64,000 bases of DNA from assembly GCA_942491345.1 (NCBI GenBank), contig CALOAN010000021.1, forward strand, positions 261,355-325,354. The letters are read 5' to 3'. The DNA is from an uncultured actinomycete. GTDB lineage: Bacteria; Actinomycetota; Acidimicrobiia; Spongiisociales; UBA5794. The translations under genes were made by a program, and so were the position numbers. A model generated the notes under the pieces. The model was not told where the DNA came from and made no database searches. It saw only the letters and a program-made list of their open reading frames with translations. Numbering within the stretch: position 1 is the stretch's first letter; each line of letters opens with the position of its first letter. Of the stretch, positions 215-63,945 are shown in pieces.

Positions 215-384
215 GTAGGCGGCACGAATCGGCCGATAGTGGATTCTGCGCCTGTGAAGGTATCCAACGTCGTGGGCACCGAAGACGAAGGAACGGGAGC
301 GGATAACTGATCCGCTGACGATTCAACGGCAATGGCGGGCGGCCAATCGGCCGTCATCCTCGCTCAGAGCTCCCCCGTGTGCGG

Positions 385-432
385 GCAGCCGCTCGGCCGC
401 GCCTCCCCCACATCGTGGTGGAGGCAGAGACT
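385..432. repeat. Copy of GC-rich palindromic element (hairpin module H1)
   Basis: gctcggccgcgCCTCCCCCAC-atc-GTGGTGGAGGcagagac, stem 402-411/415-424, just downstream of the anti-sigma stop. The same module occurs at 13244-13270, 28180-28202, 28215-28244, 39974-39998 and 63809-63838. Confidence 0.6.
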
Positions 433-3397: not shown

Positions 3398-3414
3398 GTT
3401 TTCGCCTCTCCCAC
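3398..3414. repeat. Fragment of the GC-rich mosaic element
   Basis: The 17-nt gttttcgcctctcccac is identical to the segment at 40367-40383, and sits just after the anSME stop. Confidence 0.4.
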
Positions 3415-13147: not shown

Positions 13148-13275
13148 GAGACTCGAGATCCGAGACTCGAGATCCGCGGCGGGCCTCATCTGCGCGATCC
13201 GAACTCCCAAAGCCCCCTCTGCGCCCGAGCATCGGCTCGGCCGCGTCTCCCCCACTTCGTGGGGGAGACGGAGAT
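13148..13275. repeat. GC-rich mosaic element copy (14-bp doublet + X module + H1 hairpin)
   Basis: gagactcgagatcc x2 (13148-13175), then gggcctcatctgcgcgatcc...agccccctctgcg, then CGTCTCCCCCAC-ttc-GTGGGGGAGACG (13244-13270). Collinear with 39875-39998. Confidence 0.75.
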
Positions 13276-28047: not shown

Positions 28048-28104
28048 GGCCAGCCCCAGTCCTCGGCAATTCCTACCCCTCAGGGGCTAGGCGGGAGCAT
28101 TGGA

Positions 28105-28370
28105 CGAGCTCATCTGCGCGTGCCAGCTCCCAGGCGGCCCCCTCCGCTCCGCTCCGGCCTCACCGGCCGGATGCTCGCGCCTCCCCCACTCCGTGGGAGA
28201 GGCAAAGACGTCTTCGTCTCTCCCACCGCTAGGTGGGGGAGACGCGGCCGGACGGAAGTCCGGTCGCAGAGGGGGCGGCCTGGGAGCTCACGCCGGAAAG
28301 ATGAGGACTGTCGACGAGCCCGGAAGGCCGCCGGTGACGGTGACACTCACCGCCCGATTCTCTGCACTCC
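28105..28370. repeat. GC-rich mosaic element, inverted-pair copy with long terminal inverted repeats
   Basis: The left arm gagctcatctgcgcg...gagctcccaggcggccccctccgc is mirrored by gcagagggggcggcctgggagctc...agatgaggac. Two H1 hairpins (28180-28202, 28215-28244) flank the palindrome AAGACGTCTT. The right boundary is approximate. Confidence 0.75.
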
Positions 28371-37094: not shown

Positions 37095-39800
37095 TCAACG
37101 CTTCCAGGGATCTCCAACGTCCGGGTCGATGCCGAAACGTTCGATCGCCTCGCGCACGACCCCGGGATCGATCCGCTGGTCGCGTGCGAGCGCGGACAGC
37201 GTTGCGACAACTACGTGGCCGGCGTCGGTCTCGAAGAATTCGCGGAGGGCCTCCCGAGTGTCGCTGCGCCCGTATCCGTCGGTTCCGAGCGACGTGTACG
37301 AACGGGGAACCCAGCGCGAGATCTGGTCCGGGACCGTGCGCATGTAGTCGGTGACGGCGATGACCGGCCCGAGCGTGCCTTCGAGCTGCCGTGTCACGAA
37401 GGGAACCTTCGGACCCTCGCCGGGATGCAGGCTGTTCCAACGGTCCACCGACATGGCCTCTTCTCGCAGCTTCTTGTAGGACGTGGCGCTCCAGAGTTCG
37501 GCCCCAACGCCGTATTCCTCGGCGAGGATGGTCTGAGCTTCCCGTGCCGCCGAATGAGATGGACCCGAGAACAGGATGGTCGCGCGGTACTTCGTGCCGG
37601 TCGGTGCCGGCGCCCATCTGTACAGGCCGTCGATGATTCCCTGATCGGACCCTTCCGGCTTCGGCGGTTGGGCGTAGGCCTCGTTGTAGAGCGTGAGGTA
37701 GTAGTAGACGTCTTCGTTGTCGACGTACATGCGCTTCAGGCCGTGTTCGATGATCCCGGCGATCTCGTAGGCGAACGCCGGGTCATATGCCTCGCATGCC
37801 GGGATGACCGAGGCGAGAACGTGGCTGTGCCCATCCTGATGCTGGAGGCCCTCGCCCAACAGCGTCGTTCGTCCCGATGTTGCGCCGAGGAGGAACCCGC
37901 GTGCGCGCGAGTCTGACGCGGCCCACAATAGGTCACCGACGCGTTGGAACCCGAACATCGAGTAGTACGTGTAGAACGGCACCATCGGCACGCCGCGGGT
38001 GGCGTATGAGGTTCCGGCGGCGATCCAGCTCGCCGTCGATCCGGCTTCGGTTATGCCCTGCTCGAGGATTTGACCGGACTGCGATTCCTTGTACGAGAGG
38101 ATCAGGCTGTGATCGACCGGTTCGTAGAGCTGGCCCTGCGAGGCGTAGATCTGTAGCTCCTTGAACAGCGCATCCATCCCGAAGGTGCGTCCTTCGTCCG
38201 GGATGATCGGCACAACACGGCGCCCGAACTGCTCGTCACGAGCGAGGCTTCGCAGCAGACGGGTGAAGACGCCGGTCGTGGACGCCTCGGCGTCGCCCGA
38301 TCCGGCATCGAACTCGGCGAAAGCCTTGTGGTCAGGCATCTCGATCGGTGTGCGGATCTCGAGCGTCCGACTCGGCACCGGACCGTTGAGCGCGTCCCTG
38401 CGCTCGGTCAAGTAGCGGTACTCGGGCGAGTCAACCGGGGGCCGGTAGTACGGCGGGCGGTCGAGTTCGAGTGCCTCATCGGGTATCTCATCGTTGAGGG
38501 ATAGCAGGTCACGAAGGCCGACCAGCTGGTCGCCCGTGAGGTTCTTGACGGAATGGGTTGCGTTCCTGCCCTGAACCTGGGGTCCGAGCGTCCAACCCTT
38601 GATGGTCTTCGCGAGGATTACCGTCGGTCGGCCCTTCATCTCCGTCGCCGCCTTGTAGGCGGCGTAGATCTTGCGATAGTCCAGACCGCCGCGGCGGAGA
38701 GCCCACAGGTCATCGTCGGTCATGTCTCGGACGAGTTGGCCGAGGCGGGGATCCGGGCCGAAGAAGTGCTTGCGCACGTACGCGCCGGACTCTGCCTTGT
38801 AGCGCTGGAATTCGCCGTCGACGGTGGAGTTCATCTTGTCGATGAGCACCCCTTCGGTGTCTCGGGCGAGCAGTGGGTCCCAACCCGAACCCCAAATCAC
38901 CTTGATGACGTTCCAGCCGTTGCCGCGAAAGATCGCTTCAAGTTCCTGGATGATCTTCCCGTTGCCGCGCACGGGGCCGTCGAGGCGCTGGAGGTTGCAG
39001 TTGACGACCCACGTCAGATTGTCGAGCTTCTCGCGGCCTGCGAGGGAGATCGAGCCGAGGGTCTCGGGCTCGTCGGTCTCGCCGTCGCCGAGGAACGACC
39101 ACACGCGGGAGCCGGACGTGTCGTCGAGATCGCGATTCTCGAGGTACTTGAGGAACTGGGCGTGATAGATCGAGTTGATCGGTCCGAGGCCCATCGAGAC
39201 CGTCGGGTACTCCCAGAATTTCGACATGAGCCGCGGGTGCGGGTAGCTCGACAGGCCGGGTTCGCCGATCTCGCGGCGAAAGCGGTCGAGGTCCGCCTCG
39301 TCGAGGCGCCCTTCGAGGTAGGCACGGGCATATACGCCGGGCGCGGCGTGGCCCTGGAAGTAGATATGGTCGCCCGGCTGACCGTCGGCGGTCCCCCGGA
39401 AGAAGTGGTTGTAGCCAACCTCATAGAGGGTTGCCGAGGAGGCGAAGGTCGAGAGGTGGCCGCCGATGCCGGGGGCAGCACGATTGGCGCGGATGACCAT
39501 AACCGCGGCGTTCCAGCGAATGAACCTGCGGATTCGTTTCTCGAGCTGCGCGTCGCCGGGGAACGGCGGCTCATCTTCGGGTGGGATCGTGTTGACGTAG
39601 GGTGTTGATACCGCGCCTGGAACCGCGATGTGGTTGCGCGCAGCCTCTCGGATGAGGCGCGCGACCAGGTATTGAGCCCGGCCCTGGCCGTCGGTCGCGA
39701 CAACTGAGTCGAACGCGTCGAGCCATTCTGCGGTCTCCGTCGGATCCGTGTCGATGTGTGGTCCGGTGTATCCGTCAATGAAGGTGGGTGGTTCGCTCAT
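37095..39800 (-). CDS. aceE: Pyruvate dehydrogenase E1 component (homodimeric type)
   Basis: About 900 aa. DTDPTETAEWLDAFDSVV N-terminus, and a GDGETDEPE thiamine-PP binding region. Confidence 0.9.
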   Translation of the reverse strand: MSEPPTFIDGYTGPHIDTDPTETAEWLDAFDSVVATDGQGRAQYLVARLIREAARNHIAVPGAVSTPYVNTIPPEDEPPFPGDAQLEKRIRRFIRWNAAVMVIRANRAAPGIGGHLSTFASSATLYEVGYNHFFRGTADGQPGDHIYFQGHAAPGVYARAYLEGRLDEADLDRFRREIGEPGLSSYPHPRLMSKFWEYPTVSMGLGPINSIYHAQFLKYLENRDLDDTSGSRVWSFLGDGETDEPETLGSISLAGREKLDNLTWVVNCNLQRLDGPVRGNGKIIQELEAIFRGNGWNVIKVIWGSGWDPLLARDTEGVLIDKMNSTVDGEFQRYKAESGAYVRKHFFGPDPRLGQLVRDMTDDDLWALRRGGLDYRKIYAAYKAATEMKGRPTVILAKTIKGWTLGPQVQGRNATHSVKNLTGDQLVGLRDLLSLNDEIPDEALELDRPPYYRPPVDSPEYRYLTERRDALNGPVPSRTLEIRTPIEMPDHKAFAEFDAGSGDAEASTTGVFTRLLRSLARDEQFGRRVVPIIPDEGRTFGMDALFKELQIYASQGQLYEPVDHSLILSYKESQSGQILEQGITEAGSTASWIAAGTSYATRGVPMVPFYTYYSMFGFQRVGDLLWAASDSRARGFLLGATSGRTTLLGEGLQHQDGHSHVLASVIPACEAYDPAFAYEIAGIIEHGLKRMYVDNEDVYYYLTLYNEAYAQPPKPEGSDQGIIDGLYRWAPAPTGTKYRATILFSGPSHSAAREAQTILAEEYGVGAELWSATSYKKLREEAMSVDRWNSLHPGEGPKVPFVTRQLEGTLGPVIAVTDYMRTVPDQISRWVPRSYTSLGTDGYGRSDTREALREFFETDAGHVVVATLSALARDQRIDPGVVREAIERFGIDPDVGDPWKR

Positions 39801-39874
39801 ACCTATGAATCTCTTTGTTGGAGGTGTCTGAGCGTACTGAGATGCGAGTCTTTGGGCGACAGAAAGTGGGACGC

Positions 39875-40433
39875 GAGACTTGAGACACGAGACTTGAGAC
39901 ACGCGTCGGACCTCATGTTCGTGATCCGAGCTCCCAGGCCGCCCCCTCTGCGACCGGACTTGCGTCCGGCCGCGTCTCCCCCACTACGTGGTGGAGACAA
40001 AGGCCCGGGCCGCCCCCTCCCGCCCTCGCTGCGCTCGGGCACCCTGGCAGCGGGCCTCATCTGCGCGATTCTGGCTCCCAGGCCGCCCCCTCCCGCCCTC
40101 GCTGCGCTCGGGCATCCTGGCAGCGGGCCTCATCTGCGCGATTCTGGCCCAGGCGCCCCCCCCGCCCTCGCTGCGCTCGGGCATCCTGGCAGCGGGCCTC
40201 ATCTGCGCGATTCTGGCTCCCAGGCCGCCCCCTCCCGCCCTCGCTGCGCTCGGGCACCCTGGCAGCGGGCCTCATCTGCGCGATTCTGGCTCCCAGGCCG
40301 CCCCCTCCCGCCCTCGCTGCGCTCGGGCACCCTCCCCCACCTTCGGTGGTGGAGGGGAGAAGCGGAGGGTTTTCGCCTCTCCCACGGAGTGGGGGAGGTG
40401 CGTCCGGCCAATTGCCCGGACGCGGAGGGGGCT
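39875..40433. repeat. Largest copy of the GC-rich mosaic element (14-bp doublet, X module, H1 hairpins, 73-bp array, H2 palindrome)
   Basis: gagacttgagacac x2 (39875-39902); H1 at 39974-39998; 73-bp array; cUUCGg-looped hairpin at about 40333-40356; CGTCCGGCCAATTGCCCGGACG; ends with cgcggagggggct (40421-40433). Confidence 0.8.
40008..40333. repeat. 73-bp tandem repeat, about 4.5 units
   Basis: Units start at 40008, 40081, 40152, 40223 and 40296. Units 2 and 3 are 71 nt (two 2-nt deletions). Unit = ggccgccccctcccgccctcgctgcgctcgggcaccctggcagcgggcctcatctgcgcgattctggctccca. Confidence 0.85.
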
Positions 40434-40451
40434 CTGTCGAAAGAGCGGCTT

Positions 40452-42916
<2,465 letters not shown>

Positions 42917-55115: not shown

Positions 55116-55346
55116 CCATTCCGCGGGCCCACAGCGCCGTATGCGGGGTGGAGAACCCTGGGTACGCAGCGCCACCCATTCCGCGGGCCCACGGCGCCGT
55201 ATGCGGGGTGGAGAACCCTGGGTTCGTGATCAGCCATTCCGCGGGCTGACGGCGCCGTATGCGGGGTGGAGAACCCTGGGTTCGCAGCGCCACCCATTCC
55301 GCGGGCCCACGGCGCCGTATGCGGGGTGGAGAACCCTGGGTTCGTG
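55116..55346 (+). repeat. 60-nt tandem repeat, 4 units (family shared with 7734-7853)
   Basis: Units start at 55116, 55176, 55234 and 55294. The array lies about 100 nt upstream of the heliorhodopsin ATG. Confidence 0.85.
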
Positions 55347-63745: not shown

Positions 63746-63945
63746 GGACCTCATTGTCGTGATTCTGGGTCCCAGAGCCCCCTCTGCGACCAAGCATCAG
63801 CTTGGCCGCGTCTCCCCCACCTGACGGTGGGAGAGACGAAGACAGTCTTTGCCCCACCACGCAGTGGGGGGGAGGCGCGTCCCGGGCAATTGCCCGGACG
63901 CGGAGGGGGCTGTTCTTGCCGCAAGGCCGGAGTGCAGAGGAGGGG
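63746..63945. repeat. GC-rich mosaic element copy with terminal inverted repeats
   Basis: gacctcattgtcgtgattc...AGCCCCCTCTGCG ... H1 hairpin 63809-63838 ... AAGACaGTCTT ... CGTCCcGGGCAATTGCCCGGACG ... CGCGGAGGGGGCT (ends 63911). The right boundary is approximate and may run to the window edge. Confidence 0.75.

Follow-up and report, generated by a model that had tools for sequence, protein, structure and literature searches.

The 64-kb window analysed here (contig C21:261355-325354, the whole stretch of DNA under study) belongs to a 4.1-Mb metagenome-assembled genome (MAG) of an uncultured Acidimicrobiia member, with 63% GC in 54 contigs. Its spacer between aceE and a metX-like gene is occupied by structured non-coding repeats that begin 16 nt past the stop codon of the metX-like gene and belong to a mosaic family dispersed over the genome, in which a gene for a DUF559 nuclease is embedded. 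An initial annotation of the window had described a recurring modular non-coding element, and the sequences at all of its sites matched the description, although the seven or more sites that it counted come down to five clear loci and the fragment at 3398-3414 is merely half of one hairpin arm and not significant. Eleven units were found in the window with an iterated nhmmer profile built from three window copies. The hairpin H1, said to be present in eight or more copies, was counted nine times (at 407, 13251, 28185, 28222, 39980, 40336, 40381, 63816, and 63853), and its stems are conserved and its loops variable, as had been noticed.

Anatomy of the repeat unit

Read 5′ to 3′, a unit consists of an X arm (GGCCTCATCTTCGCGATTCNGGCTCCCAGGCC), a tail (GCCCCCTCTGCG), hairpin S, CGC, hairpin H1 (GTCTCCCCCAC, loop, GTGGNGGAGAC), and GAAGAC. 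The core of ~65 nt comprises the pyrimidine tail, hairpin S, and H1 with its C-rich 5′ arm and G-rich 3′ arm, and the X arm (~33 nt) and arrays of a GAGACNN heptamer are optional outer modules. The majority of the units (137 of 144) were predicted to fold as two adjacent hairpins. The S stems are varied, several of them by compensating changes (CCGAGC, CCGGAC, CCAAGC, CCGGGC, CCAGGGC, and CTCCGGCC). The 5′ arm of H1 is almost invariant, its 3′ arm occurs as three alleles (a perfect stem, a C.T mismatch, or a C.A mismatch), and the outer stem covaries as GTC/GAC, GCC/GGC, and CCC/GGG, giving three subfamilies with which the tail also shifts (CTCTG, CTCCG, and CTCCC).

Tail and H1 C-arm mirror each other, and the complementary strand accordingly reads C-arm, loop, G-arm, hairpin S, and mirror G-arm. 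In 90 of 102 units, the three bases after the tail CCCCCTC mirror the three bases before CTCCCCC of H1, with a mean mirror score of 2.69 out of 3 positions versus 1.94 (standard deviation 0.07, maximum 2.16) in 2000 shuffles. The same rule was repeated in variants read from the sequence, namely CCCCCCTG/GGGGGGAC, the pair CCCCCTCC/GGGGGAGG of a further double-hairpin family, here called P, and a variant carried by G022, a genome that belongs to the same order but to a different family. The tail and the purine arm of H1 are thus mirror repeats, not Watson-Crick partners; such an arrangement is what a third strand needs, and a triplex might form in vivo on this basis. BoxC/PIT repeats, which share this kind of mirror block, have been known in Escherichia coli since the 1990s. 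The published pattern of TMECO, another name for them, is CCCTCNCCC-N3-6-GGGNGAGGG-N3-GGGNGAGGG (PMC4666352). The closing CGCGGAGGGGGC is indeed the inverse of GCCCCCTCTGCG, but we prefer to read it as the third (mirror) block of a BoxC/PIT-type triplex motif rather than as the terminal inverted repeat that had been proposed.

Family size, distribution, and genomic context

The family extends far beyond the window. Using six window copies as queries, blastn gave ~129 loci in the genome, and an iterated nhmmer profile of the ~96-nt unit gave 164 units, 82 of them full length, which collapse into 96 loci whose architecture ranges from a single ‘>’ to ‘<><><<><’ and whose length reaches 770 nt; with such numbers, the family is not a product of chance. 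The units are imperfect palindromes in intergenic clusters of alternating orientation, as in REP/BIME elements, and overlap a called gene by more than 30 nt at only 7 of the 96 loci. Convergent spacers were enriched (35 of 96 loci versus 16.4% expected, p=1.6e-6) and divergent spacers were depleted (9 of 96), and in co-directional spacers the units lie nearer to the preceding stop codon (median distance 80 nt) than to the start codon that follows (166 nt). A position just after stop codons, which the initial annotation stated for all copies, holds as a tendency but not as a rule, the main locus lying after the metX-like stop codon but also directly before aceE.

This enrichment of convergent spacers, the shorter distance to the upstream stop codon, and the compensatory changes that keep the stems raise the possibility of a role at the RNA level, in which the units would be kept by selection as U-tract-less terminators, stabilisers of 3′ ends against exonucleases, or insulators between convergent genes. 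U-tracts are often missing from actinobacterial terminators, which would also suit this role. However, units occur in both orientations relative to transcription, as had been described (33 same-strand and 54 opposite-strand units), many copies stand upstream of genes or in arrays of 500-770 nt, and the mirror rule between tail and H1 is left without a Watson-Crick RNA explanation. An intrinsic terminator scan of 39600-40700 revealed no terminator-like site, and H1 is followed by GAAGAC and no U-tract in the units read, so that the suggested terminator function found no counterpart in the main locus, the sole locus scanned. A known RNA family was likewise rejected as a candidate, since Rfam gave no match in the window at gathering thresholds and only chance-level matches (E>=0.1) for two loci at relaxed thresholds. 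The PIT repeats of E. coli, as summarised in PMC4666352, show neither promoter nor terminator activity. Gene 3′ ends are also where insertions are best tolerated, and altogether an RNA-level role appears quite improbable.

Among the 19 genomes of the genus, 12 carried the family, and the 12 genomes taken from other families of the order all lacked it; when public genomes were scanned with a pattern, matches came solely from MAGs of Actinomycetota/Acidimicrobiaceae. As far as these genome sequences indicate, the family is confined to one genus of uncultured Acidimicrobiia. Within the present assembly, contigs C19, C12, C46, C52, C50, C35, and C33 and the first ~200 kb of C11 and C20 had zero mosaic units and zero heptamer arrays, and the remaining assembly was dense in them.

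Turnover between related genomes

Comparison with CAWEEG01 and CBFDAN01, two related MAGs (84-98% identity in flanking DNA), revealed differences in presence, orientation, and copy number, and the turnover is rapid, proceeds at the DNA level, and takes place at intergenic sites mostly downstream of genes. At C44:254568, a tandem array resembling that of the main locus, with ~97% identical flanks in a relative, the outer units are common to both genomes and two internal modules of ~50-75 nt differ; copy number changes by whole ~73-nt units. The unit at C20:250991 has opposite orientations in two species, with its X end against a heptamer array in both, and at three sites a unit in the relative corresponds to heptamer arrays only in this genome. 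Tandem expansion was seen with 73-nt and ~145-nt spacing, and head-to-head joins produced long palindromes. A ~1.3-kb insertion with a reverse-strand ORF (open reading frame) lies beside a mosaic unit in CAWEEG010000016.1 (L016, ~1720-2900), with none at the site of this genome.

The aceE/metX spacer itself had no clean empty site among the relatives, and its exact boundaries were not derivable. Its counterpart in G012 contains an extra small gene, and that in G006 contains a different repeat family and an insertion sequence (IS). In the latter genome, the upstream spacer of aceE (contig C18, L034) holds three copies of this other multi-hairpin repeat (TTCCTTCCCCTCAGGGGAAGG...GGGGTCTCTCG...), with a ~1-kb IS-like ORF between two of them, and the metX-like gene is duplicated ~9 kb away.

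Some of these features could be taken to indicate a miniature inverted-repeat transposable element (MITE) or a strict REP/BIME family, mobilised in trans by the DDE transposase of an IS sharing the X arm or by a RAYT (Y1/HUH) enzyme. Complete dimers (28106-28309 and C44:325905-326098) carry X arms of ~35-38 nt as terminal inverted repeats, orientations alternate within clusters in a BIME-like manner, and the assembly has one Y1_Tnp match. However, 34 loci are isolated full-length units with a single X arm and no partner arm, and none of 26 isolated units had a target-site duplication, conservation ending 3-10 nt before CTCAT and ~5 nt past H1. A MITE with a parent IS was rejected on these grounds and from the X...X′ pairs within 12 kb in this assembly, which enclose nothing or ORFs that look ordinary (a judgement made without a domain check). 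A RAYT/TnpA(REP)-like cognate enzyme was also rejected, as PF01797, searched for in this genome and 30 relatives, had a single match, on copy-free contig C33 and apparently frame-broken past the HUH motif; no Y1_Tnp was found in the 18 genus relatives, though 9-11 of them carry the family. Mobilisation of this kind is therefore highly improbable. The REP/BIME-like label of the initial annotation stands for the layout (orientations, head-to-head pairs, clusters, and 3′-end enrichment) but not for membership, no RAYT tracking the family, and its MITE-like label fits a dispersed modular non-coding element but fails on target-site duplications and on an IS with common ends.

A DUF559 gene embedded in the repeats

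The densest repeat region of the genome (C42:11-39 kb) holds the only DUF559 gene (C42:29190-29567, 125 aa), the product of which matches Pfam PF04480 with 108.5 bits against a cut-off of 20.6 and PDB 3HRL, an endonuclease-like protein, with E=6e-20, and retains the invariant motifs FRRQ, DF, ExD, and H. The gene lies between family copies, which in gene orientation read H1, S′, CGCAGAGGGGGC, 53 nt, ATG...TAG, 6 nt, GCCCCCTCCGC, and further modules. The same gene-repeat arrangement was found in G006, with 71% nucleotide identity across gene and flanks; its cassette occupies a different chromosomal site without synteny outside the repeats, and the counterpart site here has repeats without the gene. 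Of the functions suggested by the initial annotation for the element, a protein-binding site gains most from these results, the search for a cognate gene having led to a DUF559 nuclease and not to a transposase.

Wherever a standalone DUF559 gene was examined in the genus or order, double-hairpin modules with the same grammar and species-specific sequence stood on both sides of it. A maximum-likelihood tree resolved three DUF559 clades, each with its own flanking repeat variant: clade 1 (G003 C31, G001 C103, G002, G010, and G015 C109; support 96/92) with the P family, clade 2a (this genome, G006, and G015 C60) with the family of this study, and clade 2b (G017, G015 C9, G003 C19, and a pseudogene in G001; support 91/95) with the CCCCCCTGCG variant. 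The clade-1 cassette occupies one syntenic spacer in most genus members, in either orientation. An origin of the X arm as a remnant of the DUF559 leader with its start codon was also considered and rejected, because local alignment outside the shared mirror block did not exceed that of shuffled sequence.

DUF559 and hairpins beyond the genus

We know of no role assigned to DUF559/YcjD, a widespread family with a nuclease fold. Its protein homologues are abundant, and many of them lie on very short contigs. Nine loci were sampled outside the genus, mostly in Proteobacteria (Steroidobacteraceae, Chiayiivirga, Xanthobacteraceae, Rhodospirillaceae, Dongiaceae, and four further contigs), with hairpins defined by 9-nt pyrimidine and purine arms with at most one mismatch. 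Such hairpins were found at all nine, either 13-130 nt before the gene or within an over-called N-terminus, often with more of them just downstream of DUF559 and almost none elsewhere in the loci of 2.7-6.4 kb. At least three of these loci had the full TMECO form, for example TCCCCTCCCCC ggtcgcc GGGGGAGGG tta GGGAGAGGG, 20 nt before the ATG.

In E. coli K-12, ycjD is the single DUF559 gene, and one of the 21 BoxC copies of the chromosome lies 150-220 nt from its stop codon. A degenerate hairpin was recognised at the stop codon, and the relic of a second ycjD 3′ end was found as well. Of 5426 complete E. coli genomes, 3378 (~62%) carry the gene. Its fabI-sapF spacer (K-12, NC_000913 1351040-1351830) has two alleles, one with BoxC, the ycjD 3′-end relic, and ycjD, and another (EcN) in which the eefRABC efflux operon replaces this block; the block is also absent from O157 and NC101. 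In a spread sample of 60 genomes obtained by similarity search, with the ycjD-side BoxC locus as a proxy for ycjD, 37 genomes with the locus had 11-22 BoxC copies (median 16) and 23 genomes without it had 1-13 (median 3; two in UTI89). No paper linking DUF559/YcjD to BoxC/PIT or any repeat was found in the searchable literature.

The main rival to a nuclease that acts on the repeats is that the repeats came first and spread by slippage, recombination, or other means. DUF559 would then be a passenger without a part in their biology, its small nuclease gene being a selfish one of the homing type that preferentially inserts into hairpin repeats or is kept there. Other small genes do lie among such repeats (the 23S_rRNA_IVP gene between inverted heptamer arrays and the ~1.3-kb ORF at L016), an IS sits inside the repeat cluster in G006, the DUF559 cassette is found at a different locus from one species to another and is inverted in some, and copies persist in genomes without the matching gene. 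Against a passenger, the protein clade fits the flanking repeat variant in ~12 loci of the genus, the pairing recurs across phyla at a fixed short distance from the start codon, the gene is syntenic in most genus members, which points to vertical inheritance rather than frequent homing, and E. coli strains without the locus have few BoxC copies. Such a passenger would also require specific recognition of the repeats by the nuclease. We regard this alternative as rather unlikely, though less so than the RNA-level role or mobilisation by a transposase.

Repeat loci of the window and outer modules

The repeat loci of the window and the genes that flank the main locus are listed in Table 1.

Table 1. 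Repeat units, outer modules, and flanking genes, in positions of the 64-kb window
Feature	Position	Strand	Evidence
Partial unit, 3′ half of hairpin S and H1 (CGCCTCCCCCAC atc GTGGTGGAGGC)	357..430	+	nhmmer model positions 19-96, E=5.6e-9
GAGACNN heptamer array, 4 units, 6 nt 5′ of X arm	13148..13175	+	Tandem repeat of period 14 (two heptamers), 100% match
Single full unit: X arm, tail GCCCCCTCTGCG, hairpin S (CCGAGC/GCTCGG), H1 with perfect stem	13181..13274	+	nhmmer positions 2-96, E=4.8e-21; predicted two-hairpin fold
Complete palindromic dimer, X-tail-S-H1 / H1′-S′-tail′-X′	28106..28309	.	Two opposed nhmmer units, 28106-28208 (+) and 28211-28309 (-)
GAGACNN heptamer array adjoining X arm; weaker units from 39838	39875..39902	+	Repeat search; 14-nt (2 x 7) repeat spans 39870-39903
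Type-1 unit: X arm 39908-39940, tail 39941-39952, S 39953-39970, H1 39974-39998	39908..40002	+	nhmmer E=9.7e-22; predicted fold
Tandem array, 4.6 units of 73 nt	40004..40333	+	Tandem Repeats Finder score 611, 95% matches
Final array unit, type 2, with own H1 (CCCTCCCCCACC ttc GGTGGTGGAGGG)	40267..40358	+	nhmmer positions 2-93, E=9.3e-12
Inverted core unit without X arm: H1′ (CCTCTCCCAC gga GTGGGGGAGG), S′, tail′ CGCGGAGGGGGC	40371..40436	-	nhmmer positions 29-95, E=1.5e-11; inverted repeat
Full unit: X arm, tail 63777-63788, S 63789-63806, H1 63810-63837	63746..63842	+	nhmmer E=1.1e-20
Inverted core unit (H1′, S′ = H2 CGTCCCGGGCAATTGCCCGGACG, tail′)	63846..63914	-	nhmmer positions 32-96, E=2.5e-7
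Flanking gene aceE (pyruvate dehydrogenase E1), outside the element	37095..39802	-	Pfam PDH_E1_M 1e-92; ATG at 39802 read in sequence
Flanking gene, alpha/beta hydrolase (homoserine O-acetyltransferase-like, metX-like)	40452..41510	-	Pfam Abhydrolase_1 8e-21

At the main locus, the heptamer array occupies the stretch 36-101 nt ahead of the start codon of aceE (39802, minus strand), and the adjoining type-1 unit has the C.T mismatch in its H1 stem. Each unit of the 73-nt tandem array comprises an X arm, a tail (CCCCCTCCCGC), and a degenerate S hairpin without H1, and the nhmmer units at 40052-40113 and 40194-40256 fall inside it; this array and the 7-nt-period arrays at 13148-13175 and 39875-39902 had been overlooked in the initial annotation. 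What was called H2 there is the S′ at 40400-40423 of the inverted unit, which ends with CGCGGAGGGGGC at 40436. The dimer at 28106-28309 is centred on AAGAC/GTCTT (28205-28214), and the last two units of the window are joined head-to-head via AAGAC-A-GTCTT at 63839-63849. The listed start of the aceE ORF (39902) is an over-extension into the repeat, and the long ORFs across the element were without Pfam match, fitting their earlier description as artefacts. A 60-nt tandem repeat at 55116-55344 (3.8 units, 89% matches) is unrelated in sequence to the mosaic family.

Arrays of at least three GAGACNN units numbered 168 genome-wide, versus 1 in a reversed-sequence control, with up to 17 units. Nearly all of them are intergenic; inverted pairs that converge are the usual arrangement, and in many cases the array sets out from a stop codon (TGA-GAC...). 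Seventeen of the 168 arrays adjoin a mosaic unit, invariably at its X end, and the pentamer GAGAC/GTCTC is common to the arrays and the H1 stem. The only 23S_rRNA_IVP gene (PF05635, a small four-helix-bundle protein; C3:70594-70908) is flanked by inverted GAGACAC arrays, and its locus (C3:70442-71013, L037), with a 12-unit array starting from the stop codon of the preceding gene, resembles a cassette whose arms are heptamer arrays. IVP genes and GAGACNN arrays were rejected as predictors of the family, IVP being present in 18 of 19 genus genomes and five family-bearing genomes having no GAGAC array. The P family has the form ACCCCCTCCGC-CGCCC..GGGCG-GCA-CCTCCCCCtgaGGGGGAGG (for example at C10:20642 and C3:150267), and its module is dispersed in all 12 genus genomes tested, with 6-54 copies per genome and 22 in the present one; a degenerate look-alike lies in the window near 28060-28100.

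Discussion

To our knowledge, BoxC/PIT repeats have no assigned function, origin, or mobility factor. The BoxC/PIT/TMECO repeats of E. coli and other Proteobacteria (Hoyne et al. 2000, as relayed by Holder et al. 2015, Nucleic Acids Research (NAR), PMC4666352) form a triplex in vitro, are strictly intergenic without strand bias, frequently occur as inverted pairs, and lie at rearrangement-prone loci, and this main BoxC study never found mobility genes near the motif. The mosaic family shares with them the three blocks (C-rich arm, loop, G-rich arm, and mirror G-rich arm), a stem mismatch that is commonly kept, and intergenic copies without strand bias, in frequent inverted pairs and at loci variable between relatives; in both, no transposase is nearby and, as found here, a copy adjoins a DUF559 gene. 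It differs in its blocks, which are CTCCCCC/GGGGGAG and not CCCTCNCCC/GGGNGAGGG, in the replacement of the 3-nt second loop by a 24-30-nt hairpin S with a free-varying stem, in its X arms, heptamer arrays, and long tandem arrays, and in its actinomycetotal host, and its triplex is a prediction. Since the published TMECO finder permitted loops of 1-6 nt only (PMC4666352), that search could not find the present family. We consider the mosaic family best filed as a new variant of the BoxC/PIT class.

Other repeat systems resemble the family in part. REP/BIME/REPIN elements and their RAYT transposase, reportedly the subject of work by Nunvar in 2010 and by Bertels and Rainey in 2011, are also short structured intergenic palindromes with tens to hundreds of copies, mosaic alternating clusters, and head-to-head doublets, and there too a single-copy gene is flanked by its own repeat variant, with the gene clade matched to the variant. 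The partner gene here, however, encodes a Vsr-fold PD-(D/E)XK nuclease and not a Y1/HUH transposase, the units have no GTAG-type 5′ tetranucleotide but a double hairpin with a mirror block, and their mobilisation is a proposal. The BOX elements of Streptococcus pneumoniae (boxA-boxB(n)-boxC; PMC3049150), compared by description only, are likewise modular and intergenic, with pairing end modules, a variable number of internal modules, and no transposase of their own, but are unrelated in sequence, without a mirror/triplex block, and have no known associated nuclease gene. With regard to the outer modules, the STRR of cyanobacteria are intergenic heptamer tandem repeats. Heptamers of this kind were also described as TAACTGA in Beggiatoaceae (PMC4679880) and GGGAATC in Xanthomonas (PMC4692102); like them, the GAGACNN arrays are tandem 7-nt repeats confined to intergenic DNA, but they usually form convergent inverted pairs from stop codons and, in 17 of 168 cases, the outer arms of mosaic units.

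Given the anatomy, distribution, and gene association described above, it is reasonable to suggest, with moderate confidence for the explanation as a whole, that these are genus-restricted non-coding mosaic repeats of the BoxC/PIT type and that a DUF559 nuclease acts on their folded units. Single strands exposed by replication or transcription could fold into a hairpin or triplex with the conserved stem mismatch, which the YcjD-like DUF559 protein, of the Vsr-fold PD-(D/E)XK type, would recognise and nick. Vsr is a mismatch-specific nicking enzyme, and DUF559 shares its fold. The nick could then lead to repair or recombination that copies, inverts, amplifies, or deletes units. We infer from the association that DUF559 mobilises or maintains the repeats, in a role that would be analogous to that of RAYT with REPs, by different chemistry.

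Several points weigh against this explanation. The link between DUF559 and the repeats is one of co-location, and a gene homing into repeats or using one of them as a regulatory site would also fit. Four genus MAGs with the family show no full-length DUF559 (their completeness is 64-88%), and 22 P-type copies persist in this genome without a clade-1 gene. Mirror covariation in this genome rests on about three subfamilies, the units of which are not independent events, and a triplex across the 25-nt hairpin that forms the linker here, in contrast to the short linker of BoxC/PIT, is hypothetical. The gene-context figures come from our own crude codon-usage ORF caller. At 4.1 Mb versus 2-3 Mb in relatives, the assembly is large, and with its stretches free of both mosaic units and heptamer arrays the MAG looks partly chimeric, so that the family densities are lower bounds. 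In E. coli, the PIT repeats had no in vivo effect according to the summary in PMC4666352, and the contrast in BoxC copy number, besides its proxy locus and its similarity-search sample, is confounded by phylogroup; it supports the hypothesis, but not independently.

Beyond the genus, the BoxC/PIT class as a whole, in bacteria ranging from E. coli to Acidimicrobiia, could have its missing partner enzyme in DUF559/YcjD-type nucleases, which we put forward as a tentative and still doubtful extension. If true, it would constitute a second system of a repeat plus a domesticated nuclease beside REP-RAYT, in which the enzyme recognises the mismatched fold of the repeat and drives repeat copying, inversion, and loss, and would explain the genomic instability reported at such loci. 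For these Acidimicrobiia MAGs, the family accounts for long spurious ORFs and over-extended gene starts, such as that of aceE, and it probably explains many assembly breaks as well, because many public contigs carrying DUF559 are shorter than 3 kb. The pairing of gene and repeat, which is consistent, clade-matched, and found across phyla, joins two unknowns into one hypothesis testable in E. coli K-12 by standard genetic and biochemical means.

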